From NCBI RefSeq assembly GCF_051903065.1, contig NZ_CP178438.1: DNA of 64,000 nt; one strand, written 5' to 3'. The translations under genes were made by a program, and so were the position numbers. Origin of the DNA: Escherichia coli. Lineage in GTDB: Bacteria; Pseudomonadota; Gammaproteobacteria; Enterobacterales; Enterobacteriaceae. Below, piece after piece: positions 25,385-40,922 of this stretch. The notes under the pieces were generated by a model. The model did not search any database, was not told the DNA's origin, and was given only the letters and a program-made list of their open reading frames with translations. Within the stretch, counting starts at the first letter, position 1, and each line of letters starts with the position of its first letter.

Positions 25385-26883
25385 CAGAAACGCTCCAGTT
25401 CAGGAAAAGGTAAATGACCGTGATGCACGTGCATGGCACCAAATTCAGCACAGCGGTGTAGCGTGGGAATGTTTTTTCCTGGGTTCAGCAAACCATCCGG
25501 ATCAAACGCCGCCTTGACCGCATGAAAGGTCGTGATTTCATCGCTGTTGAACTGGGCGCACATTTGATTGATTTTTTCTCGCCCGATGCCATGTTCCCCA
25601 CTGATGCTGCCGCCAACTTCAACGCAGAGTTCGAGGATCTTCCCGCCCAGCACTTCCGCGCGGGCAAATTCACCGGGTTCGTTGGCATCGAAAAGGATTA
25701 AAGGGTGCATGTTGCCGTCTCCGGCATGAAAGACGTTGGCAACGCGTAAATCATATTGCTGCGATAAACGGGCAATGCCTTCCAGTACGCCAGGCAGCGC
25801 GCGGCGCGGGATGGTGCCATCCATGCAGTAGTAATCCGGGGAGATACGTCCTACCGCCGGGAATGCATTTTTGCGACCGGCCCAGAAACGTACGCGCTCT
25901 GCTTCGTCCTGTGCCAGACGGACGTCAGTCGCGCCCGCTTTCAACAAGATGTCGTTAACCCGCTCGCAGTCTTCCTGTACATCAGACTCCACGCCGTCCA
26001 GCTCGCATAACAAAATCGCTTCGGCGTCGACGGGATAACCGGCATGAATAAAATCTTCCGCCGCGCGGATCGACAGGTTATCCATCATCTCCAGCCCGCC
26101 GGGGATAATGCCATTGGCGATGATGTCACCAACCGCAAGTCCGGCTTTTTCTACCGAGTCAAAGCTTGCTAACAGAACCCGCGCCACGGGCGGCTTCGGC
26201 AGCAGTTTTACCGTCACTTCGGTGGTCACGCCGAGCATACCTTCCGATCCGGTGAACAACGCCAGCAGGTCAAAACCAGGCGAATCCAGCGCATCCGATC
26301 CCAGCGTCAGCGCCTCGCCATCCAGCGTTTGCACTTCAATTTTCAGCAGGTTATGTACGGTCAGACCATATTTCAGGCAGTGGACGCCGCCGGCATTTTC
26401 AGCCACATTGCCGCCAATCGAACAGGCGATTTGTGATGAAGGATCCGGCGCGTAATAGAGATTATGCGGCGCAACGGCCTGGGAGATCGCCAGGTTACGC
26501 ACGCCCGGCTGCACACGCGCGCGGCGACCAACGGGGTTAATGTCGAGGATCTCTTTAAAGCGCGCCATCACCAACAACACACCTTTTTCCAGCGGCAGCG
26601 CGCCACCAGAAAGCCCGGTGCCTGCACCACGGGTCACCACCGGTACACGCAGGCGGTGGCAGACAGCCAGAATCGCTGTCACCTGTTCCATCTGCTTAGG
26701 CAGAACAACCAGTAATGGACGCGTGCGATACGCGCTCAACCCGTCACACTCGTAAGGAATGATCTCCTCATCGGTATGCAGGATCTCCAGTCCAGGGACA
26801 TGCTCACGCAGTGCCATCAGTACCGATGTGCGGTCGACATCGGGTAAAGCGCCATCAAGACGCTCTTCGTACAAGATGCTCAT
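25384..26883 (-). CDS. glcD: Glycolate oxidase subunit GlcD (FAD-linked oxidase)
   Basis: 499 aa; first gene of the glcDEFGBA operon. Confidence 0.9.
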   Translation of the reverse strand: MSILYEERLDGALPDVDRTSVLMALREHVPGLEILHTDEEIIPYECDGLSAYRTRPLLVVLPKQMEQVTAILAVCHRLRVPVVTRGAGTGLSGGALPLEKGVLLVMARFKEILDINPVGRRARVQPGVRNLAISQAVAPHNLYYAPDPSSQIACSIGGNVAENAGGVHCLKYGLTVHNLLKIEVQTLDGEALTLGSDALDSPGFDLLALFTGSEGMLGVTTEVTVKLLPKPPVARVLLASFDSVEKAGLAVGDIIANGIIPGGLEMMDNLSIRAAEDFIHAGYPVDAEAILLCELDGVESDVQEDCERVNDILLKAGATDVRLAQDEAERVRFWAGRKNAFPAVGRISPDYYCMDGTIPRRALPGVLEGIARLSQQYDLRVANVFHAGDGNMHPLILFDANEPGEFARAEVLGGKILELCVEVGGSISGEHGIGREKINQMCAQFNSDEITTFHAVKAAFDPDGLLNPGKNIPTLHRCAEFGAMHVHHGHLPFPELERF

Positions 26884-27133
26884 GAGTAGGCTTCGCTTTG
26901 TTATGTTGTGTGGCAGCTGATTTTTGCGCGCTGCTTCTGTGAACAGTTATTAAGCGGGCTTTTCGTTTTCGTCTATCTCTTTAGCTACCGGTCAGACCAT
27001 TTTTTTTCCAGCTCTGTGACCTTGTCTTGGTTAACTTAATGTTAAATTGATGTAACATAATCACTTACGTGATGTGCGTGTTTTGCGAGTTAAGAACAGA
27101 AAAATTGGTCCTACCTGTGCACGAGGTCCGGGA
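26884..27133. promoter_or_regulatory. Divergent glcD / glcC promoter region
   Basis: Intergenic region between divergently transcribed glcD and glcC; individual sites not mapped. Confidence 0.5.
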
Positions 27134-27898
27134 ATGAAAGATGAACGTCGCCCTATTTGCGAAGTGGTTGCAGAGAGTATCGAACGGTTAATTATCGACG
27201 GCGTACTGAAGGTCGGTCAGCCGCTTCCCTCGGAACGTCGACTGTGTGAAAAGCTCGGCTTCTCACGCTCCGCACTGCGTGAAGGGCTGACCGTGCTGCG
27301 CGGGCGCGGGATTATTGAAACGGCGCAGGGTCGCGATTCTCGTGTCGCACGGCTTAATCGGGTGCAGGACACCAGTCCGCTGATCCATCTGTTCAGTACG
27401 CAACCGCGAACGCTGTACGATCTGCTCGATGTTCGCGCATTACTGGAGGGCGAATCGGCAAGGCTTGCGGCAACGCTGGGAACCCAGGCTGATTTTGTTG
27501 TGATAACCCGCTGTTATGAAAAAATGCTCGCCGCCAGTGAGAACAACAAAGAGATTTCGCTGATCGAACATGCGCAGTTGGATCACGCTTTCCATCTCGC
27601 CATTTGTCAGGCTTCTCACAATCAGGTGCTGGTGTTTACGCTGCAATCATTGACCGATCTGATGTTTAATTCAGTGTTTGCCAGCGTAAATAATCTCTAC
27701 CATCGACCACAGCAAAAAAAGCAGATCGATCGCCAGCATGCGCGGATCTACAACGCGGTGTTGCAGCGGCTGCCGCACGTCGCCCAGCGCGCAGCACGCG
27801 ATCATGTGCGGACCGTGAAAAAGAATCTCCACGATATCGAGCTGGAAGGCCACCATTTGATTCGCTCGGCGGTGCCGCTGGAGATGAACCTGAGTTAG
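27134..27898 (+). CDS. glcC: GntR-family transcriptional activator GlcC
   Basis: Start MKDERRPICEVVAESIERLIIDG; ATG at 27134 checked on the sequence. Confidence 0.9.
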   Translation: MKDERRPICEVVAESIERLIIDGVLKVGQPLPSERRLCEKLGFSRSALREGLTVLRGRGIIETAQGRDSRVARLNRVQDTSPLIHLFSTQPRTLYDLLDVRALLEGESARLAATLGTQADFVVITRCYEKMLAASENNKEISLIEHAQLDHAFHLAICQASHNQVLVFTLQSLTDLMFNSVFASVNNLYHRPQQKKQIDRQHARIYNAVLQRLPHVAQRAARDHVRTVKKNLHDIELEGHHLIRSAVPLEMNLS

Positions 27899-27904
27899 CT
27901 GGTA

Positions 27905-29047
27905 TTAAATCTGCTTTTCATACAATCGGTAACGCTTGTACGGCTCCGCCCCAATGCGTTCCAGCATGTTATTCATGCCTGTATTGGTTTCGAGGATCCA
28001 TGACATCTCCAGCGCATCGATCTTCCGGCGGGCAAACGGATCGCGTAAGGCTTCAATCAATAACAGCGCAATCACCGGGCCGATGCGGCTGAACTGATAC
28101 TCGTCGCGCACGCCCATCAGCGGTACTCTCGCAGTTCGCACACCGCTGACTTTCAAACGCCACAGCAATTTTGCCCAGCCGAAGGGAAAGAGCGATCCGT
28201 TCAGATCGGCAATCGCCTCGTTGATGTTCGGCAAGCCGACAATAAACGCGCAGGGTGCAGAATCAATCTCAGCGATGTAGATCATATCGTCCGGCACCAG
28301 ATATTTAAGTTGGTCGCCCATGGTCGCGAATTCATGTTCGGTAAACGGCACAAATCCCCAGTTGTGCTGCCAGCCAGAGTTGAAAATCTCACGCAGGATC
28401 TGCATCTCTTCGGCAAACCGCTGACGATTGATGCAGCGAATGGTCACCTTTTTGCGCACCTGATCCATCAGTTTTTTTAGCGCCGGAGAGAAAGTGAGAT
28501 CGGTTCGCTGCATCCACCACGCCAGTAAATCAATGCCTTTGTGATAACCCAGTTGTTCAATATGCGCGGCATACCACGGTTTGCCGTGTGGCATCATCGC
28601 ACAGGGTGGTGTATCGAAACCTTCAATCAGTAATCCGCTTTCCTGATTGATATTCAGGCTGAAAGGACCGCTGATCTTACTTGCACCTTGTGACTTCAAC
28701 CACGCTTCCGCTGCGCCAAACAACGCGGCAAAAACCTGCGGATCATCAATGGCGTCAATCATGCCGAAATGACCGGTATCTTCGCCGTAACGCTCGCGGT
28801 GTAAGGTATCGATTTGCGCGGTAATACGCCCAACTATCTGCCCGGCTATTTTTGCCACCCACGCCTGCCAGATGATATGGTCCGTCCCCGGATTTTTCAC
28901 AGACAAATGCTCGTTGCGTTCAATGAATAAAGGGGGTATCCAGTTTGGATCGTCGGGATAAAGTGATGACGGAAAAGCGATAAATGCCTTAAGGTCATTT
29001 TTATTAGTTACTTTTTCAATTTGAATCATTAGCAGATCGCATTCCAT
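27905..29047 (-). CDS. yghO: YghO, predicted acyl-CoA N-acyltransferase fold (candidate ceramide-synthase-like enzyme)
   Basis: 380 aa intact ORF matching recalled YghO; acyltransferase fold is recalled annotation, not verified here. Confidence 0.75.
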   Translation of the reverse strand: MECDLLMIQIEKVTNKNDLKAFIAFPSSLYPDDPNWIPPLFIERNEHLSVKNPGTDHIIWQAWVAKIAGQIVGRITAQIDTLHRERYGEDTGHFGMIDAIDDPQVFAALFGAAEAWLKSQGASKISGPFSLNINQESGLLIEGFDTPPCAMMPHGKPWYAAHIEQLGYHKGIDLLAWWMQRTDLTFSPALKKLMDQVRKKVTIRCINRQRFAEEMQILREIFNSGWQHNWGFVPFTEHEFATMGDQLKYLVPDDMIYIAEIDSAPCAFIVGLPNINEAIADLNGSLFPFGWAKLLWRLKVSGVRTARVPLMGVRDEYQFSRIGPVIALLLIEALRDPFARRKIDALEMSWILETNTGMNNMLERIGAEPYKRYRLYEKQI

Positions 29048-29418
29048 AGTTCTGTAGATAACAAAAAATTAACGGTGACAAACAGGTTGCAACAGCAACG
29101 AACGGCATCTTAATAATCAACCCAATGAATACAAACGACGAATAAATAGTATTTATTAATGATTACGATAAGGTCAGAGACTACACAGAAGCGCCACAAT
29201 GCCTTTTGTCGATTTAAGGCGACCGGACAAGGCTTCTTCTTAATATATTCATAAATTAAATATCATTCACAATAAAAACAAAAAAACTCAAACTCATTAT
29301 TTAAATCAATGTTCATTTTCACACTGATGAAAATACTATCTCATTTATCTTTTATGCCTATATAATCCACCGCATTATTGTCATTTTATTTTGGATATCC
29401 AATTTTTTCGTGGTGTAT

Positions 29419-31140
29419 ATGTCTAATAAAATCTTTACGCATTCCCTACCTATGCGCTATGCCGATTTTCCAACGCTGGTTGATGCTTTGGACTACGCCG
29501 CTCTGAGTAGCGCTGGAATGAATTTTTATGACAGACGTTGCCAACTTGAAGATCAACTGGAATATCAGACGTTAAAAGCGCGTGCCGAAGCTGGTGCGAA
29601 GCGGTTGTTATCGCTAAACCTGAAAAAAGGCGATCGCGTGGCGCTGATTGCCGAAACCAGTAGCGGGTTCGTAGAGGCTTTTTTTTCCTGCCAGTATGCC
29701 GGCTTAGTCGCCGTCCCGTTGGCGATTCCAATGGGCGTCGGTCAGCGGGATTCCTGGAGCGCCAAACTGCAGGGTTTACTGGCAAGTTGCCAGCCCGCTG
29801 CCATTATCACTGGTGATGAGTGGTTGCCGCTGGTCAATGCCGCCACGCATAACAACCCCGAATTGCATGTATTAAGCCACACCTGGTTTAAGGCATTACC
29901 GGAAGCCGATGTTGCGCTCCAGCGTCCAGTTCCGAACGATATCGCCTACCTCCAGTACACCTCCGGCAGCACCCGTTTTCCCCGTGGCGTCATTATCACC
30001 CATCGCGAAGTGATGGCTAATCTACGTGCTATAAGCCACGACGGCATTAAATTACGCCCTGGCGACCGCTGCGTCTCCTGGCTGCCTTTCTACCATGATA
30101 TGGGACTGGTCGGCTTTCTCCTGACCCCCGTCGCCACGCAGCTTTCAGTAGATTATTTGCGCACTCAGGATTTTGCCATGCGTCCTCTGCAATGGCTTAA
30201 ATTGATCAGTAAAAATCGCGGCACCGTTTCCGTTGCGCCGCCGTTTGGCTATGAATTGTGCCAGCGCCGCGTGAATGAAAAAGATCTCGCTGAACTGGAT
30301 CTTTCCTGCTGGCGCGTCGCTGGTATTGGTGCAGAACCCATCTCCACAGAACAACTCCATCAATTCGCTGAATGTTTCCGTCAGGTTAACTTTGACAATA
30401 AAACTTTCATGCCGTGCTACGGACTGGCAGAAAATGCGCTGGCTGTCAGCTTCTCTGATGAAGCCTCCGGGGTTGTGGTTAACGAAGTGGATCGCGACAT
30501 CCTCGAATATCAGGGTAAAGCCGTCGCGCCGGGTGCAGAGACACGCGCCGTATCGACTTTCGTCAACTGCGGCAAAGCGTTGCCGGAACATGGTATTGAA
30601 ATCCGCAATGAAGCAGGTATGCCGGTCGCGGAACGTGTGGTAGGCCATATTTGCATCTCCGGTCCCAGTCTGATGAGCGGTTACTTTGGCGACCAGGCTT
30701 CGCAAGACGAGATTGCCGCGACGGGCTGGTTAGACACTGGCGACCTCGGATATCTGCTGGACGGTTATCTGTATGTCACCGGACGCATTAAAGATCTGAT
30801 TATTATTCGTGGCCGTAATATCTGGCCGCAGGATATTGAATATATAGCGGAACAGGAACCGGAAATTCATTCTGGCGATGCGATTGCTTTTGTTACCGCC
30901 CAGGAAAAAATCATTTTGCAGATCCAGTGTCGGATCAGCGATGAAGAACGTCGCGGGCAGCTTATCCACGCGCTGGCGGCACGGATCCAAAGCGAATTTG
31001 GCGTGACCGCGGCTATCGATCTGTTGCCGCCCCACAGTATTCCCCGAACGTCCTCCGGCAAGCCTGCCCGTGCGGAAGCGAAAAAACGTTATCAGAAGGC
31101 TTATGCTGCAAGCCTTCATGTGCAGGAATCCCTGGCATGA
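29419..31140 (+). CDS. Fatty acyl-AMP ligase / acyl-ACP synthetase (adenylate-forming enzyme)
   Basis: AMP-binding motifs YTSGSTRFPRGV and TGDLGY; ORF track begins at GTG 29410, first ATG at 29419. Confidence 0.85.
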   Translation: MSNKIFTHSLPMRYADFPTLVDALDYAALSSAGMNFYDRRCQLEDQLEYQTLKARAEAGAKRLLSLNLKKGDRVALIAETSSGFVEAFFSCQYAGLVAVPLAIPMGVGQRDSWSAKLQGLLASCQPAAIITGDEWLPLVNAATHNNPELHVLSHTWFKALPEADVALQRPVPNDIAYLQYTSGSTRFPRGVIITHREVMANLRAISHDGIKLRPGDRCVSWLPFYHDMGLVGFLLTPVATQLSVDYLRTQDFAMRPLQWLKLISKNRGTVSVAPPFGYELCQRRVNEKDLAELDLSCWRVAGIGAEPISTEQLHQFAECFRQVNFDNKTFMPCYGLAENALAVSFSDEASGVVVNEVDRDILEYQGKAVAPGAETRAVSTFVNCGKALPEHGIEIRNEAGMPVAERVVGHICISGPSLMSGYFGDQASQDEIAATGWLDTGDLGYLLDGYLYVTGRIKDLIIIRGRNIWPQDIEYIAEQEPEIHSGDAIAFVTAQEKIILQIQCRISDEERRGQLIHALAARIQSEFGVTAAIDLLPPHSIPRTSSGKPARAEAKKRYQKAYAASLHVQESLA

Positions 31141-32051
31141 ATCAAACTGTCGCGGTGACGGGCGCTACCGGTTTTATCGGTAAATATATTATCGATAACC
31201 TGCTCGCCCGCGGCTTTCACGTTCGCGCATTGACGCGTACTGCCCGCGCTCACGTCAATGATAATCTCACCTGGGTGCGCGGTTCGCTGGAAGATACTCA
31301 TTCACTTAGCGAACTGGTTGCCGGAGCCAGTGCGGTGGTCCATTGCGCCGGGCAAGTGCGCGGACACAAAGAGGATGTCTTTACTCGCTGTAACGTTGAC
31401 GGTAGCCTGCGCTTGATGCAGGCGGCAAAAGAGAGCGGCTTTTGCCAACGTTTTCTATTTATCTCTTCGCTGGCGGCGCGCCATCCCGAGCTCTCCTGGT
31501 ATGCAAAATCCAAACATGTCGCCGAACAACGACTGGCAGCAATGGCGGACGCAATTACGCTGGGCGTTTTTCGCCCAACGGCAGTCTATGGCCCCGGCGA
31601 TAAAGAGTTAAAACCACTGTTTGACTGGATGCTGCGCGGCCTGCTGCCACGGCTGGGCGCACCAGATACACAGCTCTCTTTCCTGCACGTCACCGATTTC
31701 GCACAAGCCGTGGGTCAGTGGTTAAGCGCCGACTCCGTACAGACGCAAACGTATGAATTATGTGATGGTGTCGTCGGTGGCTATGACTGGCAGCGCATAC
31801 AACAACTGGCCGCCGCCGCCCGCCAGGGAGCTGTACGGATGGTCGGCGTTCCTCTGCCGTTGCTCACCTGCCTTGCGGATATCAGTACCGCGTTGAGTCG
31901 CCTGGCAGGTAAAGAACCTATGCTGACCCGCTCGAAAATTCGTGAATTAACCCACGCCGACTGGTCGGCAAGTAATAACCGTATTTCTGAAGATATTAAT
32001 TGGTTTCCCGGGATTAGCCTGGAACACGCATTACGCAACGGGCTATTTTGA
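31137..32051 (+). CDS. Extended SDR (NAD-dependent epimerase/dehydratase family) reductase
   Basis: Rossmann GATGFIG at N-terminus and YAKSK (YxxxK) motif; start overlaps the upstream stop (ATGA). Confidence 0.85.
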   Translation: MNQTVAVTGATGFIGKYIIDNLLARGFHVRALTRTARAHVNDNLTWVRGSLEDTHSLSELVAGASAVVHCAGQVRGHKEDVFTRCNVDGSLRLMQAAKESGFCQRFLFISSLAARHPELSWYAKSKHVAEQRLAAMADAITLGVFRPTAVYGPGDKELKPLFDWMLRGLLPRLGAPDTQLSFLHVTDFAQAVGQWLSADSVQTQTYELCDGVVGGYDWQRIQQLAAAARQGAVRMVGVPLPLLTCLADISTALSRLAGKEPMLTRSKIRELTHADWSASNNRISEDINWFPGISLEHALRNGLF

Positions 32052-32082
32052 TTGTCTTGTTTAAAGGTGTGTTAACGTTTCT

Positions 32083-32331
32083 ATGGTAAATCGTGAAATA
32101 GTAATGGATTACATCCTTTCCTGTTTACAGGATTTGGTCGAAAACGGTGTGGAAATTAAGCCCGACAGCGATCTCGTCAACGATCTTGGCCTGGAGTCGA
32201 TCAAAGTGATGGATCTCTTAATGATGCTGGAAGACAGATTCGATATTTCCATTCCTATTAATATTCTGCTGGATGTCAAAACCCCTGCGCAATTAATGGA
32301 AACTCTACTTCCATGGCTGGAGAATAAATAA
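32083..32331 (+). CDS. Acyl carrier protein
   Basis: 82 aa; DLGLESIKVMDLLMMLED resembles the phosphopantetheine attachment region; AAGGTG upstream of ATG 32083. Confidence 0.7.
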   Translation: MVNREIVMDYILSCLQDLVENGVEIKPDSDLVNDLGLESIKVMDLLMMLEDRFDISIPINILLDVKTPAQLMETLLPWLENK

Positions 32332-33503
32332 TGGGGCTATACGATAAATATGCGCGCCTTGCTGGCGAGCGACTGCAATTTAGTGACAACGGGTTAACAC
32401 CGTTTGGCACCTGTATTGATGAAGTGTATTCCGCCACCGAAGGCCGGATCGGCAATAAAAAAGTGATTCTGGCCGGGACCAATAATTACCTCGGTTTAAC
32501 CTTTAATCATGATGCCATCGCCGAAGGTCAGGCAGCGTTAGCGACCCAAGGCACCGGCACCACCGGTTCTCGTATGGCAAACGGCAGTTATGCGCCGCAC
32601 CTGGCGTTAGAGAAAGAGATTGCCGAGTTTTTCAATCGCCCTACCGCTATCGTTTTTTCAACCGGTTATACCGCTAATTTAGGCGTCATCAGCGCACTTG
32701 CCGACCATAACGCCGTGGTGTTACTGGATGCCGACAGCCACGCCAGTATTTATGACGCCTGTTCTCTCGGTGGCGCGGAAATTATTCGTTTCCGCCATAA
32801 CGATGCTAAAGATCTGGAACGGCGCATGGTTCGCCTCGGTGAACGGGCGAAAGAGGCGATTATCATCGTTGAGGGCATCTACAGTATGCTCGGTGACGTT
32901 GCGCCACTGGCGGAAATTGTTGATATCAAACGTCGTCTCGGTGGTTATTTGATTGTCGATGAAGCGCATTCGTTTGGCGTGTTAGGCGCAACGGGGCGCG
33001 GACTGGCTGAAGCTGTAGGCGTTGAAGATGATGTGGATATTATCGTTGGCACCTTCAGTAAAAGTCTGGCCTCGATTGGCGGTTTTGCTGTCGGTTCGGA
33101 AGCGATGGAAGTGCTGCGCTACGGCAGCCGCCCGTATATTTTTACCGCCTCTCCTTCTCCGTCCTGCATTGCGACCGTGCGCTCGTCGTTAAGAACTATT
33201 GCCACACAACCAGAGCTGCGGCAAAAGCTGATGGATAATGCCAACCATCTGTATGACGGTCTGCAAAAACTGGGTTATGAGTTAAGTTCACATATTAGCC
33301 CGGTAGTGCCGGTAATAATCGGTTCGAAAGAGGACGGTTTACGCATCTGGCGCGAGCTTATTTCGCTGGGCGTTTATGTGAATCTTATCCTGCCACCTGC
33401 CGCGCCTGCAGGCATCACGCTGCTGCGCTGTAGCGTAAACGCTGCCCACAGTCGTGAGCAAATCGATGCCATCATTCAAGCGTTCGCTACTCTGAAGCAG
33501 TAA
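32331..33503 (+). CDS. PLP-dependent alpha-oxoamine synthase (serine palmitoyltransferase/BioF/Kbl family)
   Basis: 390 aa; PLP-lysine motif GTFSKSLASIGGF; start overlaps the ACP stop. Confidence 0.85.
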   Translation: MGLYDKYARLAGERLQFSDNGLTPFGTCIDEVYSATEGRIGNKKVILAGTNNYLGLTFNHDAIAEGQAALATQGTGTTGSRMANGSYAPHLALEKEIAEFFNRPTAIVFSTGYTANLGVISALADHNAVVLLDADSHASIYDACSLGGAEIIRFRHNDAKDLERRMVRLGERAKEAIIIVEGIYSMLGDVAPLAEIVDIKRRLGGYLIVDEAHSFGVLGATGRGLAEAVGVEDDVDIIVGTFSKSLASIGGFAVGSEAMEVLRYGSRPYIFTASPSPSCIATVRSSLRTIATQPELRQKLMDNANHLYDGLQKLGYELSSHISPVVPVIIGSKEDGLRIWRELISLGVYVNLILPPAAPAGITLLRCSVNAAHSREQIDAIIQAFATLKQ

Positions 33504-33537
33504 TGTGAGCCCGCTGTGGTGTTGCGCCACGGCGGGT

Positions 33538-34617
33538 TTAATGTTGTCTGTCATACCAATACACCAGGCTCAACGCCATCAACACAAACGCTACCGGTAA
33601 ACCGAGCGCGATAACAGGTGCGCTCAACGCAAATAGCAAACCCAGATTGACCATGATTTGATAGCTGATCCAGGTGAGTAAGCCAACGATGACGCCTACA
33701 GCGAGACGGCTACCCATCCCTGGCGAGCGCGGGGCGCTAAAGGTAAACGGCACAGCCAGCAAAATCATCGCCAGGGTCAGGATCGGTTGCCCCAGTTTTT
33801 CCCACAGTGCAAGGCGGTATTCGCTGCTGGGTTGCCCGGTTTCCTGCAAATAATGGATGTAATGATTAAGCTGACGGACAGAAAAAGTATTCCCCGGCAT
33901 CGATAGCTCTTCAAGATCCATACTGGTGAAGGCCGATTGCCAGGCAAGATTATCTGATGTTTCCAGCGTTTCTTTACCGTTAAGCCATTTTTTATGATTC
34001 ACACCATGCAGGATCCACATTTTGTCGTCTTTAATGGTGGCACTGCGTGCATAAATGTAGGATTCGAGCGAGAGATCGTCGCGATAATGAAATATCTCCA
34101 CGCCCACCGGCTGGCCCTGCTCGTTCAGCGATTTCACCGTTACAAATTCATTACCGCGCCTGGCCCAAAGCATATTGCCGGTAATATCATCGTCCTCCCC
34201 CAACGCAGTGGCGGTCGATTTGATTTGCAGCGCCTGTTGCTGCAATGGCGACGCTACCCACTCATCTATCGCGCCTAACGAAACAGTCCACAATATCCCG
34301 GCAACCAGCGCCACCAGTGCAATACGGAAGATAGAAAACCCCGTGCTGCGAATGGCGGTAAGCTCACTGTTTTTCGATAACTGCCCCAGGCCAACAATCC
34401 CTCCCAATAAGGCGATAAACGGCGAAAGTTCGACCAGTGTGCGCGGTAAGGTCATTAGCACCACCAGCACCGCCTGAGTCCAGCGATAACCGCCCGGGCT
34501 GACATCATCCAGTTCGTTAATCAGGTTGAAGGTGGTAAAAAGCGGCAGCAATAGCCCTGCGGCGGCGGCAAAACCGAGAAAGAGATGACGGATTAAATAG
34601 CGACTGAAAACATTCAT
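33538..34617 (-). CDS. LptG-like permease (YjgP/YjgQ family)
   Basis: Start MNVFSRYLIRHLFLGF; six-helix permease pattern; 4-bp overlap with the upstream LptF-like gene. Confidence 0.75.
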   Translation of the reverse strand: MNVFSRYLIRHLFLGFAAAAGLLLPLFTTFNLINELDDVSPGGYRWTQAVLVVLMTLPRTLVELSPFIALLGGIVGLGQLSKNSELTAIRSTGFSIFRIALVALVAGILWTVSLGAIDEWVASPLQQQALQIKSTATALGEDDDITGNMLWARRGNEFVTVKSLNEQGQPVGVEIFHYRDDLSLESYIYARSATIKDDKMWILHGVNHKKWLNGKETLETSDNLAWQSAFTSMDLEELSMPGNTFSVRQLNHYIHYLQETGQPSSEYRLALWEKLGQPILTLAMILLAVPFTFSAPRSPGMGSRLAVGVIVGLLTWISYQIMVNLGLLFALSAPVIALGLPVAFVLMALSLVYWYDRQH

Positions 34618-35684
34618 CGGGAAAATTTCTGCAGCAAAGAGAAGTCGCGTGCGACCAGCATCAGCAGGCCCATTAGCATGAGTCCGGGCACTAACCACAA
34701 ACCAGGAATGAGAGGAATCGCGCCGTTAGCCACCAGCGTACGGCAGACGTCGCCGCCATAAAAAATGACAACAAACAGCAACGTCAGTGGCAATAACGTT
34801 GAAAATCGCCCTTGCCGCGGTTTTACCCGACTTAATGAAATGGCCAGCAGCGCCATCAACAATGCGGTCAGGCCACGGCTTTGTCGCCATTGCAGTTCGG
34901 CATGATCGGCCGGAAAGACGGAGCGCGCCAGCTCCGTGACCGATTTTGCTTTGCGTTTGACGTTAGGGCTTTGATCCAGCGGATTCAGATGTAATTGCAG
35001 ATTACGGTAGATCTGTTCGTTGTCGTCACGCCCCTGATGATCGAGAAGATAGGCGGTGCCGTTGTGCAACATAACGGTCGGTTTCTCGGGAGATGGGTCA
35101 ACCACATCAACCGAACGGGCGCGGAAAATGCGGGTTCGATTGGCAGTAGAAGTATAAATCAGCGCGTCAGTCAGGCGATTATTATCCTGATCAACCGTCT
35201 GCGAAAGGATCATTCGTCCGTTATCGTTAGTGTTAAATTTCTTTGCCCGCAACTGGCGAACATCCAGCTCCGACTGCGACTGCTGCTCCAGTTGATAAAT
35301 CTGCGCATAAGCCCACGGACGACCATACATCGACAGAAGGGTGACAAAAATACTTAGCGGTATCGCCAGATAAAGAACGGCTTTGTACAAGCGTCCCGGA
35401 CTGCCCCCTGCCGCAGAGATAGCAGTAATTTCCGAGTCGGTATACATCTGCCCTAGCGTCACGCCAACTGACACATACAGTCCAACAGGTAACAACATCT
35501 CCAGTGCAATCAGCACCTTGTAGAAAACGATATCCAGCACAACATCAAGTGCTAATGTCCCATTTGCCGCTTCGGTCAGATAACGCTGTGCGGAGTAGCT
35601 GGCGAAAATAAAGATCAGAAAACCGACGATAATCAGCACCAGACGGCGCGTACCACGCATGATGTAGTGTTCAACCAGCTTCAT
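34614..35684 (-). CDS. LptF-like permease (YjgP/YjgQ family)
   Basis: 356 aa; MKLVEHYIMRGTRRLVLII; paired with the LptG-like gene. Confidence 0.75.
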   Translation of the reverse strand: MKLVEHYIMRGTRRLVLIIVGFLIFIFASYSAQRYLTEAANGTLALDVVLDIVFYKVLIALEMLLPVGLYVSVGVTLGQMYTDSEITAISAAGGSPGRLYKAVLYLAIPLSIFVTLLSMYGRPWAYAQIYQLEQQSQSELDVRQLRAKKFNTNDNGRMILSQTVDQDNNRLTDALIYTSTANRTRIFRARSVDVVDPSPEKPTVMLHNGTAYLLDHQGRDDNEQIYRNLQLHLNPLDQSPNVKRKAKSVTELARSVFPADHAELQWRQSRGLTALLMALLAISLSRVKPRQGRFSTLLPLTLLFVVIFYGGDVCRTLVANGAIPLIPGLWLVPGLMLMGLLMLVARDFSLLQKFSR

Positions 35685-35714
35685 CTCACTAACGCCCTCA
35701 ATCCTTTGAATTTT

Positions 35715-36278
35715 TTATTCATTGATCAGTTTCTGCGCCAGCGCAATGACATGATCTACCTCTTCCGGCGTCAGGCTGCCGTCCTTTGCCCACTGAATTT
35801 GCCCGGTTTTATTCAGCACCAGAATGGTTGAACTCTGCTCCGGCAAGCGCCAGGCAACGCGTCCCTGTCCATTGCCGTCAATAACGAATTGCGCCCACGG
35901 ATAGCGGCGTTTATTTTTTTCGATTTTGCCAACGACAAAATAGCCAGTACCAAAGATGGCATCATCAGTGTTCACAATGGTGGTGGGCTGAAAACGATCC
36001 TGTGGAAAGTTTGCCGCTTCAACCGCTTTAATTAACAGTGAGTTCTTTTTCTTCGCCGACTTACGCCCGGCGATATACTGGATAATGCGGACTTTTCCCG
36101 CCAATTGTGTGCTGTTCCACTTTTGGTAGTGAATTTCGTCGTCGCTATTCAGAAGCAGCTCGCCGCCTTCCTGAATATAAACAGGGGTAACCGTTTTGCC
36201 AGTGACGAAATTGTGTGCCTGCACACCCGGGGCTAAGAGCATGATAATCAGCGCAATAATCAAACGAGATGACATCAT
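35715..36278 (-). CDS. YtfJ-family periplasmic protein (paralog)
   Basis: 187 aa with signal peptide; clear similarity to recalled YtfJ (TTIVNTDDAI...YPW.QF..D.NG...WQL...VLDK.G..QWAKDG.LTPEEV). Confidence 0.75.
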   Translation of the reverse strand: MMSSRLIIALIIMLLAPGVQAHNFVTGKTVTPVYIQEGGELLLNSDDEIHYQKWNSTQLAGKVRIIQYIAGRKSAKKKNSLLIKAVEAANFPQDRFQPTTIVNTDDAIFGTGYFVVGKIEKNKRRYPWAQFVIDGNGQGRVAWRLPEQSSTILVLNKTGQIQWAKDGSLTPEEVDHVIALAQKLINE

Positions 36279-36286
36279 TGCTCCGG

Positions 36287-37111
36287 TTATAGCGGAAAAC
36301 GCGAAATCAGCAGCTCTAAGCGCTGGCGAATATCGCTATCCAGCGCCACCGGTGCATCATACGACTGGCGGTTTTCCATATCATCCGCCACCATGTCGTC
36401 GTGTTTATCCCCCATCAGGCCATTAATGGCGGCGAGGAAACGGGAAATCTGTAACGCCTCTTTATTTTCAGGATCAAGCGATCTTAAGGTGTCGTAATAA
36501 GAAACCTGCTGGCTGATGATTTTTCGCACATCATGAAATTCCCTGCCGGTTAGTCGCGGTTTGGCAATTATCTCTTTCAGGGCATGCATTTGCTTTTGCC
36601 GATAGGCAATAAAACCGCTTACGCTTTCTAACTGGCTATGGCGTAATGAATAGTTCACCAACGACCAGACCGGAGAGCTTAAATAAATCCGTAACAGGTT
36701 GCCGTAATACGACACAATATTTTTCTTACCGTTACGAAACCCGTCCTGAAAACGTCCCAGAAAAACGGTCGTTTTGCCGAATAAAAATCCGGCCTGATGC
36801 TTCTTTAAATACAGCCGTTGCGCAAAACGCAGGTGCTTGTAGCGCGCTCGCATGTATTTAAATTGTTTGCGCTCATCAGCAGTCAGCTCATCGCCTTTGG
36901 CTTGTTTGCGAACTAAACGCAGTAATTCCTGACGATTAACGCCATTGAGCCAGAATTGCAGGCATAACGCGTAATTATCATGAATGATTTCGGTGGTACA
37001 ACTTAGTGCAATAGTCGGCGGCAAACTAACCTGTGCATCAACGACATCATCTTCTTCAATCGCAACAAATAGACGCTCGCTCGCCTCAAGCGGGAAATAT
37101 TTTCTCATCAT
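36287..37111 (-). CDS. Hypothetical protein
   Basis: 274 aa ORF between the YtfJ-like gene and yghQ; no motif recognised. Confidence 0.55.
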   Translation of the reverse strand: MMRKYFPLEASERLFVAIEEDDVVDAQVSLPPTIALSCTTEIIHDNYALCLQFWLNGVNRQELLRLVRKQAKGDELTADERKQFKYMRARYKHLRFAQRLYLKKHQAGFLFGKTTVFLGRFQDGFRNGKKNIVSYYGNLLRIYLSSPVWSLVNYSLRHSQLESVSGFIAYRQKQMHALKEIIAKPRLTGREFHDVRKIISQQVSYYDTLRSLDPENKEALQISRFLAAINGLMGDKHDDMVADDMENRQSYDAPVALDSDIRQRLELLISRFPL

Positions 37112-38460
37112 CAGGATTTCTCTCCGGCTGCGTTATAAAGCAAGGAATGGCGCTGAAAAAATGCCTTTAAGGTTGGAATTAACGAGAGCGCCACGTCCAG
37201 ACATTGCCCACCGAAGTAAGCAAACGCTGCTCCCAGCACGCCAAACAGATGACAGAACATGAACAGCAATACGATGTAGCCGATTGAGGCGATGGTTTGC
37301 GCCACGAGAAAAGCGCGCTGTTTTCCCGCCATCAATAGCAATGACTCCTGAGGGAAGCCCAGCATCGAGATCACAATTGCGCCCAGCATCACCTGAATCA
37401 GGTCATACGCTTCGAGATACTTAACGCCAAACACCAGCGAAATGAGCGGCTTGCCGACGATCAACACCGCGAGCGCCACCAGAATACCGATTCCGCCCGC
37501 CAGTAAACCGGACTTCACGCCTAACAACCACGGTCTGGTGGTGCGCGGATCTAAACGCATCACCTCTGGGTAAAAACTTTTACCCAGTAAACCCGCTGGC
37601 GTTCCGGCGGCGTCGAAGAATGTCATGGCGATTTTAAATAACCCGGCGGCAGCGGGTCCTAACACGATCCCCACCAACACTGTGCTGCACGAGTTACGTG
37701 CCGACCAGATGGAGTGGGCAATGTTGGTCGACCAGACAAAACTCCACGCGCCTTTAATGTGTCGGGCAGACTCAAACAGATTCAATTTGAAGGCGTTATG
37801 GATATTTCTGCGGCGTAATTCGCGCGCGGCAAACCACCAGTACATGGTGCCGCCAACCAGATTCGACACGTACCAGGCAATAACAAAACCCGCAAAACCA
37901 AAGTCAAAATACCAGGCTACGACGCTCCCCGCTGCGCGCAGAAAAGGTTTCGTCGCCTGCTGTACAGCAATCAAATCAAAGCGATCTACCGCACGCAGAA
38001 TGCCGGTCGGCGTGGAGGAAGCCATTGAAGGAATGAGCGTGCAATACAGCGCCGCCAGCCAAAAGCTTTGGTCATCCAGACCTAATGAATGGGAAAGGAA
38101 TGGCAGTAAGGCAATGCCGCCGACAATCGCCACCGCGCCGCTGACGATATCCAGCGAGAAGGAAAATGAGACGACATTGCGAAATTGCTGCGGATTATTG
38201 TTGGTTAATGCTGGTGTTCCGTACTGAACCACCAGCTGCCATGTCTGAAACTTAATAAAATCGCTGATCGACTTGGCGTACGATTGCACAATCACCAGTA
38301 CGCCAAACATGGCGGGCGTCATCCCTTTACCGGCACACGAGAGCGCCAACAGCCCCAGCAAAGCGCTCACGACATTACTGGAGCCTAACCAGGCGCTATT
38401 GCGAATAATGGTGCGAAACGCGCCATCTGCAAACCAATGTTTGATGTTAAAACCCGCCAA
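37111..38460 (-). CDS. yghQ: YghQ, MOP/Wzx-like polysaccharide/lipid flippase family membrane protein
   Basis: 449 aa polytopic membrane protein; synteny with yghRST. Confidence 0.75.
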   Translation of the reverse strand: MAGFNIKHWFADGAFRTIIRNSAWLGSSNVVSALLGLLALSCAGKGMTPAMFGVLVIVQSYAKSISDFIKFQTWQLVVQYGTPALTNNNPQQFRNVVSFSFSLDIVSGAVAIVGGIALLPFLSHSLGLDDQSFWLAALYCTLIPSMASSTPTGILRAVDRFDLIAVQQATKPFLRAAGSVVAWYFDFGFAGFVIAWYVSNLVGGTMYWWFAARELRRRNIHNAFKLNLFESARHIKGAWSFVWSTNIAHSIWSARNSCSTVLVGIVLGPAAAGLFKIAMTFFDAAGTPAGLLGKSFYPEVMRLDPRTTRPWLLGVKSGLLAGGIGILVALAVLIVGKPLISLVFGVKYLEAYDLIQVMLGAIVISMLGFPQESLLLMAGKQRAFLVAQTIASIGYIVLLFMFCHLFGVLGAAFAYFGGQCLDVALSLIPTLKAFFQRHSLLYNAAGEKS

Positions 38461-38505
38461 TTCAGCCTGACCTTATCGTTGATAGTAAAAAGTATCCCGC
38501 CAGCC

Positions 38506-39264
38506 TTAAGTTAAACTTCGGCGGTCAGAAACGATGGCAACCAGAGAAACCGCCTTCTGTGCCTGTTCCAGCACTTCGCTGTAGGGCGCTCTGGAATCAA
38601 TCTCAAGAATTTTTGTGCCGTTATAGCCAATCGTCGACATAACACCGATTTTGTCCTGCAGCTCGGCATAGTCATGGTCAGGCTTGCGGGAGATGGCAGT
38701 CTCAATATCAATGCCCAGGCGAATAATTAATTCCGGGCGATATTGCGCCATTTGTTGGTATAAACGCCGTTCGCGCTGCGCCAGAAACATGCTTATTTTC
38801 CCGGTCGCACGTTCGACGCCAATCCCCGGTCCATCATAATAAAAGCCCGAAATTTCAGCCTGCGGGAAGCGATCGCTGACCACCAGAACGCCACTTTGCG
38901 CCAGTCGCTGAACCTTGCGTAGATTCGCCATTCTTCGCAGCGAGAAGCAGTACATAATCACCGCCGCCCATAGCGCCGGAGATTTGGTTTTCATGCTTTG
39001 GGTTTTCGAGGATTTGGCCGCCAGTCGCCGTTCCAGCCAGACGCCAACCAACGGCAATCGTTTGATTTTGTCGCCGTCTTCGCCCGAGAGCAGCCCCAAA
39101 TAGCGGCGCTCGGTTTGCCAGTGTTGTTGCAGCGATTTCACCAGGTCGGTGGTCAGCGTGGATTTACCGGTGCCATCACACCCGACCACCGCAATCAGCC
39201 CCGGAATGTAGTTGGGCTGCGGTGCGGTTGTACTATTAACAGTTTGTGTTTGTAGTGCATCCAT
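38506..39264 (-). CDS. yghR: YghR, P-loop ATP-binding protein
   Basis: Walker A GCDGTGKST; matches recalled YghR (MDALQTQTVNSTTAPQPNYIPGLIAVVGCDGTGKSTL). Confidence 0.85.
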   Translation of the reverse strand: MDALQTQTVNSTTAPQPNYIPGLIAVVGCDGTGKSTLTTDLVKSLQQHWQTERRYLGLLSGEDGDKIKRLPLVGVWLERRLAAKSSKTQSMKTKSPALWAAVIMYCFSLRRMANLRKVQRLAQSGVLVVSDRFPQAEISGFYYDGPGIGVERATGKISMFLAQRERRLYQQMAQYRPELIIRLGIDIETAISRKPDHDYAELQDKIGVMSTIGYNGTKILEIDSRAPYSEVLEQAQKAVSLVAIVSDRRSLT

Positions 39265-39295
39265 TCGTTAAATCATCCCCTATCCATTTTGGTGA

Positions 39296-40009
39296 TCAGG
39301 AAAGCGCGGCGTGAATTGCGCGTAGTGACGCTTGCATAATTTCATCGGCTGGTTGCCGACCATCCAGTTCAAGGATCTTTGCGCCATTGAATGTCAGTTG
39401 CGGCGTAACGGCGATTTTTTCCTGTAACGCTGCCAGTTGGTGGTCAGGTTTACGCGCAAACGCGGTTTGTTCATCAATGCCAAGACGAATCAACAATACG
39501 GGTAAATAAGACGCCATCCATTGGTACAGCTTCAACTCGCGCTGCCTTAACATTTTTATCCAACCGTTACCGCCCGTGGTTTTTGCCAATTGCGGGCCAT
39601 CAAAGCGAAAACCCGGCACTTCAACCTGCGGGTAGCGGTCGGTGATGAGCAGATGGCCTTGCTGGCTTCTACACAACATTTTGCGAAACTTGTACGCCCG
39701 CCAGCAGGAAAGCAGATAGATAACCAGCGCAGTAATATTGCCAGGCGGTGTTGAGGGCTTTTCGTGCACATGTGCCGCTTTACTTCGCAGATAACGCCCA
39801 AAAGGTGCGCCAATAACAGGGAGCTGTGAAATCCATTCGCCAATTCGCCCGGACGATTGCCCGAGATAAATGCGTTCTGTTGGCATTCTTGCTGCCAGTT
39901 CATTTACCAGGCTTGCCGTGAGGGTCGATTTACCTGAACCATCACATCCTACAATGGCAATAACACGCACTGGCGTGGAATTAATTATTGACATATTACG
40001 TTGATTCAC
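39296..40009 (-). CDS. yghS: YghS, P-loop ATP-binding protein (YghR paralog)
   Basis: Walker A GCDGSGKST; 237 aa. Confidence 0.85.
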   Translation of the reverse strand: MNQRNMSIINSTPVRVIAIVGCDGSGKSTLTASLVNELAARMPTERIYLGQSSGRIGEWISQLPVIGAPFGRYLRSKAAHVHEKPSTPPGNITALVIYLLSCWRAYKFRKMLCRSQQGHLLITDRYPQVEVPGFRFDGPQLAKTTGGNGWIKMLRQRELKLYQWMASYLPVLLIRLGIDEQTAFARKPDHQLAALQEKIAVTPQLTFNGAKILELDGRQPADEIMQASLRAIHAALS

Positions 40010-40182
40010 GAAAAACCCGGCAGTAAATAATGTATTGAATATTACGTGGTCCGTGCTCAGAATATCCGTTCAACCTTATTGTGACAATGGTTAATTGTGA
40101 CATTGACCTGAATTACGCTTTCATAAAAACATATTAACCAAATAAATATTTTGGATGGATATTTAAATTAAAGGATATATTC

Positions 40183-40875
40183 ATGCAGTCAATAACACCT
40201 CCATTAATTGCCGTTATTGGTAGCGATGGTTCAGGCAAGTCAACGGTGTGTGAACATCTCATTACCGTTGTCGAAAAATATGGTGCTGCCGAAAGAGTTC
40301 ATTTAGGAAAACAAGCCGGAAATGTCGGTCGTGCAGTGACAAAATTACCGTTGATGGGAAAATCCTTACATAAAACAATTGAACGAAATCAGGTGAAAAC
40401 AGCAAAAAAATTGCCAGGACCAGTTCCGGCGCTGGTAATTACAGCGTTTGTCGCCCGTCGCTTACTGCGCTTTCGTCATATGCTTGCCTGTCGTCGTCGC
40501 GGGTTAATTGTTCTAACCGACCGTTATCCTCAGGACCAAATTCCTGGCGCTTACGATGGTACGGTGTTCCCACCTAACGTTGAAGGTGGTCGTTTTGTCT
40601 CATGGCTGGCAAGCCAGGAACGTAAAGCGTTTCACTGGATGGCGAGCCATAAGCCTGATCTGGTCATCAAACTCAATGTCGATCTAGACGTGGCCTGCGC
40701 GCGTAAGCCTGACCACAAAAGGGAGTCGCTGGCAAGAAAGATAGCCATAACGCCACAGTTAACCTTTGGTGGTGCACAACTGGTTGATATCGACGCCAAT
40801 CAGCCACTGGAACAGGTGTTAGTTGATGCAGAAAAAGCGATTACGGATTTTATGACCGCGCGTGGTTATCACTAG
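40183..40875 (+). CDS. yghT: YghT, P-loop ATP-binding protein (YghR/S paralog)
   Basis: Walker [10 protein letters not shown]; 230 aa. Confidence 0.85.
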
Positions 40876-40922
40876 CCAAAAATGGAAATGCCCGATCGCC
40901 AGGACCGGGCATTTCAGGAAGG

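Follow-up and report, generated by a model that had tools for sequence, protein, structure and literature searches.

Probable transport and surface-delivery half of the Escherichia coli sphingolipid (ceramide) locus: paralogous Lpt permeases, a candidate flippase and a divergent CHAD-fold protein

What might be the function of five consecutive genes coding for two LptF/LptG-type permeases, a YtfJ-like periplasmic protein, an unrecognised protein of 274 amino acids and a putative flippase, all lying next to a lipid biosynthetic cassette in a species that harbors the canonical lptF, lptG and ytfJ genes elsewhere on the chromosome? The question is raised by positions 33538-38460 of a 64,000-nucleotide stretch of an Escherichia coli chromosome of non-K-12 type (contig NZ_CP178438.1; hereinafter, the window), for which a first-pass annotation, based on the sequence alone, had proposed a dedicated module moving a lipid or a glycolipid across the envelope. 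All five open reading frames (ORFs) are indeed present and intact, co-directional on the minus strand and convergent with the biosynthetic cassette. We suggest that, of the two halves of the E. coli sphingolipid (ceramide) locus, this region is probably the one in charge of transporting the lipid and delivering it to the surface, and that it would run on, beyond the five genes, to yghR, yghS and yghT.

The proposed export role gains support from the ceramide cassette lying alongside, from the precedent of the Caulobacter LptF2/LptG2 proteins and from the clustering of 13 genes in different genera. Concerning the first point, yghO, aasR, cerR/epi, acpR and spt are the five genes of the ceramide pathway known from alpha-, beta- and gammaproteobacteria, corresponding to Caulobacter aca/cerS, aasR, epi/cerR, acpR and spt, and biochemical work on the AcpR, AasR and Spt proteins of E. 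coli BL21 demonstrated that they form 3-oxo-sphinganine (PMC9386255). Concerning the second, in 2024 the second copies of LptC, LptF and LptG of Caulobacter, together with the Polysacc_synt protein CC_1166, were indicated as probable sphingolipid transport proteins; CC_1166 was proposed to be the sphingolipid flippase, and its mutants cofit with those in LptF2 and in head-group genes (PMC11324152). More recently, it was reported that Caulobacter LptF2 and LptG2 form a complex, that both bind the sole housekeeping LptB, with which they co-purify, and that they can be deleted solely in spt or cpgB mutants, becoming essential once the anionic sphingolipid is made (Uchendu, Isom, Klein, bioRxiv 10.64898/2026.04.12.717747). 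The question whether an LptFG-like pair of this kind needs the housekeeping LptB ATPase, which the first-pass annotation had left to experiment, has a positive answer in the Caulobacter homologs (bioRxiv 10.64898/2026.04.12.717747). The same preprint, dated April 2026, draws the locus of E. coli UTI89 as homologous; as a concept, dedicated lipid export is, in other words, largely published for Caulobacter, and a drawing of the E. coli locus is also available.

As for the third point, a comparative scan of one genome per species, performed with a profile built from a 17-sequence subset of the family of the 274-amino-acid protein (Ybl138, which we describe below as CHAD-like), retrieved 79 loci, which were then searched with all 13 E. 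coli locus proteins. The 13 genes occur together in every enterobacterial locus complete on both flanks (a few being cut by contig ends), in 14 named genera, represented by Escherichia, Pseudocitrobacter, Hafnia, Sodalis, Pantoea, Erwinia, Serratia, Citrobacter, Mangrovibacter, Klebsiella indica, Tatumella, Rosenbergiella, Cedecea and Rahnella. Within these loci the genes form blocks (yghO; aasR-cerR-acpR-spt; yghT; yghS-yghR; yghQ-chad-ytfJ2; lptF2-lptG2) whose order and orientation vary. The persistence of the cluster despite the shuffling of its blocks therefore speaks for a functional unit rather than for inherited synteny.

The organization found outside the Enterobacterales is simpler. 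In Luteibacter, Rhodanobacter and Dyella (Xanthomonadales) the genes aasR-cerR-acpR-spt-yghQ-chad lie in one orientation with kinase-like genes just upstream, and a metagenomic contig (L002) exhibits the same aasR-cerR-acpR-spt-yghQ-chad array with a divergent LptFG pair. Sphingomonadales share a conserved unit yghS-(yghR)-yghT-yghQ-chad, and Acetobacteraceae a yghT-chad pair with yghS and a yghQ-like gene nearby. The core found in Enterobacterales, Xanthomonadales, Sphingomonadales and Acetobacteraceae thus consists of a flippase, a CHAD-like protein and two to three kinase-like paralogs, with a near-constant yghQ-chad adjacency across loci; YtfJ2 and the E. coli-type LptF2/LptG2 branch were seen, among the 79 loci, in Enterobacterales only. 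Since YghR, YghS and YghT co-occur with YghQ and Ybl138 in the four orders, we extend the module to position ~40875. Hence, the extent originally assigned to it was right as far as the five genes are concerned, but its boundary at 38460 was not, yghR, yghS and yghT belonging to it as well. A further gene was noticed in Luteibacter (L040 3455-4213), where an OlsC/LpxO-type lipid acyl 2-hydroxylase is encoded between the kinase-like genes and aasR, which suggests 2-hydroxylated acyl chains in the sphingolipid of that organism.

The possibility that the permeases might be decayed pseudogenes devoid of the LptF/LptG core residues, which the first-pass annotation had itself raised against its proposal, is ruled out. 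The ratio of nonsynonymous to synonymous substitution rates (dN/dS) ranges between 0.03 and 0.15 for all 13 genes, both versus Escherichia whittamii and versus Pseudocitrobacter (it is 0.05 for lptG2), and all the ORFs are full length in the 14 genera; the 13 genes are, therefore, under purifying selection.

The assignment of the two permeases to the LptF and LptG families was borne out. LptG2 scores 304 bits with TIGR04408 (cut-off 240) and just 86 bits with the LptF model, and LptF2 scores 320 bits with TIGR04407 (cut-off 230) and just 68 bits with the LptG model of NCBIfam; moreover, the alignments with solved structures cover the whole of each protein, LptG2 matching LptG (E 1e-41) and LptF2 matching LptF (E 2e-31). 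They share with the housekeeping extractor LptB2FG(C) (PDB 6mhu, 6mit, 6s8g, 5x5y) the three N-terminal and three C-terminal transmembrane segments, the central periplasmic domain, the F-then-G gene order with overlapping stop and start codons, and the coupling-helix Glu. They differ from it in being just 26-28% identical (25.8% for LptF2 and 27.9% for LptG2 with the K-12 proteins) and non-essential, being absent from K-12 and from ~24% of strains. As the canonical lptFG genes map at 4.486 Mb and ytfJ at 4.439 Mb in K-12, the idea that those of the window are dedicated paralogs holds. RefSeq/PGAP labels them “lptF” and “lptG” because the equivalog cut-offs of NCBIfam are passed, so that these genomes hold two genes of each name; these names are probably misleading for the paralogs.

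The alignment of 41-42 enterobacterial LptF2/LptG2 orthologs with K-12 LptF and LptG permitted the mapping of single residues. The coupling-helix Glu (LptF E84 and LptG E88), which we take to be the residues docking into LptB, is present in both proteins of the window and kept in 41/41 LptF2 and 41/42 LptG2 orthologs; no ABC ATPase was found among the genes of the locus. A different picture emerges for the residues in contact with lipopolysaccharide (LPS) in the housekeeping exporter, i.e., LptG K34, K40, K41, K62, R133 and R136 and LptF R33, K317 and K322, a K34E change in LptG being lethal in the real LPS exporter (Tang 2019, PMC6744409). In LptG2, K34 is replaced by N/D/T, K40 by D/E, K41 by D and R133 by L/Q, and in LptF2, K322 is replaced by N, the Q248 position being also changed; three of these contacts have become acidic. 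The basic contacts LptF R33 and K317(R) and LptG K62(R) and R136(K) are retained, and the full cationic set that contacts the lipid A phosphates and the inner core in the LPS exporter is not. We infer from these alignments that the pair retains its motor part and its contact surface for LptB, whereas the charges at the edge of the substrate cavity have changed. The altered LptG2 cavity residues suggest that the substrate differs from bis-phosphorylated lipid A.

The resemblance to the Caulobacter pair (CCNA_01214/CCNA_01213) concerns the presence of an LptF/LptG paralog pair inside a sphingolipid locus devoid of a dedicated ATPase. The interaction with LptB was shown in Caulobacter, and the E. 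coli pair keeps the LptB-docking Glu. The enterobacterial LptF2/LptG2 branch is very divergent, and it was compared with the Caulobacter pair by locus context. The two systems also differ in their accessory parts: Caulobacter possesses LptC2, which according to the preprint is confined to it, whereas the E. coli locus lacks LptC2 and harbors instead YtfJ2, Ybl138 with its CHAD-like character and the three kinase-like proteins of P-loop type.

Regarding YtfJ2, the claim of a second YtfJ copy found full support. The protein scores 213 bits with TIGR01626 (cut-off 151) and matches Pfam YtfJ_HI0045 (PF09695) at 2e-59; it is 54% identical to K-12 YtfJ, and its sole hydrophobic segment (residues 1-19) belongs to an N-terminus ending ...VQA-HN, that is, to a signal peptide. 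In all the enterobacterial loci ytfJ2 lies directly 3' of the CHAD-like gene, and in none of the loci of other orders. The comparison of YtfJ2 with solved structures gave no match, whether its sequence alone or a profile was used, and a search for functional literature on it found none. YtfJ2 may stand where Caulobacter has LptC2, although no homology supports this.

The protein of 274 amino acids had been described as unrecognised, and it matches neither NCBIfam nor, even at E<=10, Pfam. The structure prediction and remote homology search that had been proposed for it were carried out. Its family comprises 344 close matches (209 representatives at 50% clustering, with identities down to ~21%), and the residues R88, D123, H193, R196 and D238 are invariant. 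The AlphaFold2 model of Ybl138 is all-helical with a predicted local distance difference test (pLDDT) score of 91, and the best PDB match of the family profile is a CHAD structure (E 0.014), the basic and His motifs being aligned; the top structural matches are the solved examples 6qv5 (Ricinus) and 6rn5 (Streptomyces PptA), both polyphosphate binders. The Pfam CHAD model (PF05235) is touched by 14/61 family members at E<=0.1, in one case at 2.5e-5, and no other family recurs in more than two of the 61 members. In UniProt, the orthologs from Sphingomonas, Zymomonas, Acetobacter and Komagataeibacter are already “CHAD domain-containing”, and the E. coli protein bears the name Ybl138. Judging from its model, Ybl138 is a divergent CHAD-fold protein, with the two four-helix bundles and the conserved basic and His residues of this fold. 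In comparison with known CHAD domains (PF05235; 6qv5, 6rn5 and the E. coli YgiF structure 5a61), Ybl138 is likewise basic (isoelectric point 9.4) and aligns with their basic and His motifs, but it is not seen by the Pfam model and stands alone without a CYTH partner; its gene, moreover, keeps company with those of a flippase and of kinase-like proteins, and the taxa concerned comprise some that are known to produce sphingolipids (Sphingomonas, Zymomonas and Gluconobacter being such producers).

Duplications of the CHAD-like gene were also observed. It is tandemly duplicated in two Luteibacter genomes (L040 10001-11766; L047 9152-10816), occurs twice in a gammaproteobacterial metagenome-assembled genome (L077 5525-8669), and forms a head-to-tail fusion in one metagenomic protein of 564 amino acids (P0124). 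Three large proteins (P0252, at L086 8001-10931, P0267 and P0261) carry an APH/choline-kinase-type phosphotransferase followed by two CHAD-like domains, and the genes beside these fusions are unrelated to the E. coli locus. The fusions again tie the CHAD-like domain to phosphotransfer.

The MOP/Wzx-like character attributed to YghQ is in agreement with weak but consistent matches, namely, Polysacc_synt (PF01943) at 1.1e-8 for residues 19-280 (a further, weak region of similarity covers 316-437), Polysacc_synt_3 (PF13440) at 1e-7, and the NCBIfam MOP flippase model at 1.9e-8, far under the equivalog cut-off. A crude scan detected at least six strong hydrophobic segments. YghQ can be considered, on the basis of these profiles, a candidate flippase; it shares with Caulobacter CC_1166 the family IPR002797 and the position in a sphingolipid locus. 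It differs from MOP flippases such as Wzx and MurJ in its weak family match and in being paired with a CHAD-like cytoplasmic protein; we know of no CHAD-like partner for Wzx or MurJ.

YghR, YghS and YghT share the invariant motifs GxDGxGK(S/T), DR(F/Y)PQ and RKPDH, as well as a basic and hydrophobic insert. RefSeq calls YghS and YghT “dTMP kinase”. This name is probably wrong, because the scores with TIGR00041 (dTMP kinase) are 32, 22 and 24.6 bits for YghR, YghS and YghT, respectively, far under the cut-off of 83, and E. coli has a separate, genuine tmk. YghT exhibits the thymidylate-kinase fold, and the fold alone is in common with the dTMP kinases. It differs from kinases with the thymidylate/nucleoside monophosphate kinase fold in the extra basic and hydrophobic insert (residues 40-105) and in the joint conservation of three paralogs. 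The insert, absent from thymidylate kinases, consists of a poorly predicted loop and, after it, a long helix in which Arg and hydrophobic residues abound, and it may represent a membrane-interface element. A homology with the Caulobacter ceramide kinase CpgB was considered and rejected, CpgB being diacylglycerol-kinase-like with a GGDG motif and YghR/S/T being P-loop proteins. As neither Ybl138 nor the kinase-like proteins have a signal peptide or a hydrophobic segment, they are presumably cytoplasmic, and the module does not consist of export proteins alone.

On these bases a putative route can be depicted. YghO, AasR, CerR, AcpR and Spt would synthesize ceramide on the cytoplasmic side of the inner membrane, as partly shown for the E. 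coli enzymes, and its head group would probably be modified by YghR, YghS and YghT, as their fold and linkage suggest. YghQ, together with the translationally coupled Ybl138, would then flip the lipid to the periplasmic leaflet, a step to which its family, the coupling and the near-constant adjacency point; Ybl138, as a basic CHAD-fold partner, may hold a phosphate-rich ligand or the head group. The LptF2-LptG2 heterodimer would borrow the housekeeping LptB ATPase and extract the lipid from the membrane, delivering it through the LptF2/LptG2 periplasmic domains to the Lpt bridge and, eventually, to the outer membrane. This step, shown for the Caulobacter counterparts, is proposed for E. coli because architecture and docking residues are conserved. 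YtfJ2 would act as an accessory factor on the periplasmic side. We can also speculate that YghQ, Ybl138 and YghR/S/T constitute an unrecognised conserved machine that charges (e.g., phosphorylates) the ceramide head group and flips the lipid across the inner membrane, and that in Enterobacterales has been joined to a private LptF2/LptG2 pair and a YtfJ paralog; this more specific idea is a tentative one, and we would not bet on it.

Different observations, on the other hand, weigh against a working sphingolipid export system in E. coli. The products of the BL21 enzymes were detected solely on overexpression (PMC9386255), and in the literature searched no native sphingolipid of wild-type E. coli is reported. 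The segment is missing from ~24% of complete E. coli genomes. K-12 MG1655 (L083, 3129043-3132408) has lost the whole interval that extends from aasR into the 3' end of yghQ, and at the junction an insertion sequence (IS), IS5 (insH9), lies exactly between yghO and a 355-amino-acid yghQ remnant, this loss having no phenotype reported in the literature searched. In strain 23CRST027, the genome closest to the window and without any difference from it over 33000-39000 (100% identity), yghO is interrupted by IS1 (L001 8130-10048), and the pathway has therefore been knocked out independently in some lineages. The match of YghQ to the MOP flippase models is weak (E 1e-8). The LptFG pair of contig L002 (1525-3662) scores 171 and 188 bits versus canonical LptF/LptG and 109 and 102 bits versus the E. 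coli LptF2/LptG2; it was consequently rejected as an ortholog of the latter, being nearer to canonical LptFG by bit score, and the “sphingolipid LptFG” may not be one clade. This pair may represent either a separate origin of sphingolipid-linked pairs or the sole LptFG of that organism. Lastly, the Caulobacter cpgABC-type head-group genes and related genes are absent from the E. coli locus; the cargo is therefore probably not CPG2, and the end product is probably a sphingolipid different from that of Caulobacter.

Part of these data would fit the idea that the locus is cryptic in E. coli, i.e., an inherited sphingolipid cluster that is silent, or nearly so, under known conditions and does not contribute significantly to the envelope. 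The missing report of a native product, the need for overexpression in BL21, the loss or IS disruption in K-12 and 23CRST027 and the genomes without the segment are all in its favor, as is a promoter signal not above the expectation from shuffled sequences. However, the dN/dS values given above for all 13 genes, measured against another Escherichia species and Pseudocitrobacter, and the integrity of the ORFs in 14 genera do not agree with it, and 4103/5426 complete E. coli genomes (76%) carry at least 80% of 33538-37111 in a single chromosomal copy with 95-99% identity. Such constraint and retention fit a conditionally expressed system under selection rather than decay, and we consider a cryptic locus unlikely.

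According to a second alternative, LptF2 and LptG2 alone would transport ceramide, and YghQ, Ybl138 and YghR/S/T would build or flip something else, for instance a sugar linked to undecaprenyl diphosphate or a phosphate-rich head-group donor, to be added to ceramide in the periplasm. Those MOP/Polysacc_synt proteins whose activity has been characterised flip glycans bound to polyprenyl diphosphate; the kinase-yghQ-chad set of Sphingomonadales and Acetobacteraceae occurs alone, with no spt or LptFG within 10 kb; a GT4 glycosyltransferase adjoins the unit in Sphingobium; and the CHAD domains of 6qv5 and 6rn5 bind polyphosphate. Nevertheless, yghQ-chad directly follows spt in the same orientation in Xanthomonadales and in L002, the E. 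coli locus contains no glycosyltransferase or polyprenyl-phosphate transferase, and the cofitness of the Caulobacter CC_1166 mutants links the flippase to LptF2 and the head-group genes. This makes the separation of the two activities quite unlikely in our opinion. It is, finally, very improbable that LptF2/LptG2 represent an alternative exporter of some modified form of LPS or lipid A with the ceramide neighborhood being incidental, an idea to which the equivalog scores, the RefSeq names and the retained cationic residues (LptF R33 and K317(R), LptG K62(R) and R136(K)) would conform, but with which the neutral or acidic residues at LptG K34/K40/K41 (in view of the lethality of K34E), the permanence of the pair with the spt cluster through many rearrangements, the 26-28% identity to the housekeeping pair and the Caulobacter genetics, tying the paralogs to sphingolipid and not to LPS, do not agree.

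What is new with respect to the published work is represented by the CHAD fold of Ybl138, the flippase-CHAD-kinase core shared by four orders, the inclusion of yghR/S/T in the module, the restriction of YtfJ2 to Enterobacterales and the charge changes in the LptG2 cavity. In the literature searched, no description was found of the three accessory parts (YtfJ2, Ybl138 and YghR/S/T), and no link of yghQ/R/S/T, CHAD or UTI89 to sphingolipids beyond the papers cited. The way in which bacterial sphingolipids reach the surface was “a mystery” until the 2026 Caulobacter preprint, which leaves the flippase, the periplasmic steps and the generality of the mechanism for others to settle. The locus offers a complete candidate pathway in the best genetic model, comprising synthesis, possible head-group kinases, a flippase with its CHAD partner, LptF2/LptG2 and YtfJ2; the segment occurs in 76% of complete E. 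coli genomes, and its absence from K-12 may explain why the locus was overlooked. For four orphan families (YtfJ, Ybl138, YghR/S/T and full-length YghQ) the locus also gives the first hints of a function, and the natural substitutions in the LptG cavity could explain how the Lpt extractor was retargeted from lipid A to another lipid. Should the flippase-CHAD-kinase machine on which we speculated above be real, most E. coli strains could place an undescribed (phospho)sphingolipid in the outer membrane, and CHAD domains would gain a role in membrane-lipid biogenesis besides that in polyphosphate granules. The display of a sphingolipid by E. coli pathogens would bear on the outer-membrane barrier, on polymyxin binding and on host recognition.

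The features of the locus are listed in Table 1. The region corresponds to glc-yghO...yghQRST-pitB, flanked by the glc operon and by pitB/gss/hyb. In K-12, yghO is still annotated as “putative DNA-binding transcriptional regulator”, and in the literature it is a ceramide synthase homolog.

Table 1. Coordinates (positions in the window) of the genes and of the terminator-like hairpin of the E. coli locus for ceramide synthesis and, probably, transport
Feature	Position	Strand	Description
yghO	27905-29047	-	N-acyltransferase, 380 aa, intact in the window (RefSeq)
aasR	29452-31140	+	Ceramide cassette (RefSeq)
cerR/epi	31137-32051	+	Ceramide cassette (RefSeq)
acpR	32083-32331	+	Ceramide cassette (RefSeq)
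spt	32331-33503	+	Ceramide cassette (RefSeq)
GC-rich hairpin	33506-33540	.	Separates the stops of spt and lptG2, which are convergent; probable bidirectional terminator
lptG2	33538-34617	-	359 aa, LptG-family permease paralog
lptF2	34614-35684	-	356 aa, LptF-family permease paralog
ytfJ2	35715-36278	-	187 aa, periplasmic YtfJ-family paralog, N-terminal signal peptide
ybl138	36287-37111	-	274 aa, all-alpha, divergent CHAD fold (predicted)
yghQ, full length	37111-38460	-	449 aa, MOP/Polysacc_synt membrane protein, candidate lipid flippase
yghR	38506-39264	-	P-loop kinase-like, paralog of YghS/YghT; 45 nt upstream of yghQ
yghS	39296-40009	-	P-loop kinase-like paralog; probably the gene that opens the yghS-to-lptG2 operon
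yghT	40183-40875	+	Third P-loop kinase-like paralog, divergent from yghS

The seven co-directional minus-strand genes yghS, yghR, yghQ, ybl138, ytfJ2, lptF2 and lptG2, from 40009 down to 33538, are separated, in strand order, by 31, 45, -1, 8, 30 and -4 nucleotides. Direct reading of the sequence revealed that the yghQ stop and the ybl138 start share one nucleotide (TGATG) and that the lptF2 stop and the lptG2 start share the four base pairs ATGA, the overlap that the first-pass annotation had described. The mechanical ORF list runs to a GTG at 34698 for lptG2; the RefSeq start (ATG 34617) is preferred, since no other start yields the ATGA overlap with lptF2. The minus-strand unit ends 34 nucleotides from the spt stop on the opposite strand, and the hairpin in between has a 16-pair stem with 9 GC pairs, being the strongest terminator-like site within 27000-41000. 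As a strong hairpin occurs at the 3' end of the unit and none inside it, this layout suggests that yghS-to-lptG2 is probably a single seven-gene operon. A scan of 26500-41500 with Rfam detected no RNA families, and the promoter scan of the locus gave a total of promoter-like sites not above the shuffled-sequence number, one of them, at 40087-40059 on the minus strand, lying ahead of yghS. A 13-pair hairpin at 40885-40915, directly 3' of yghT and before the convergent pitB, is probably a second bidirectional terminator, at the far edge of the locus.

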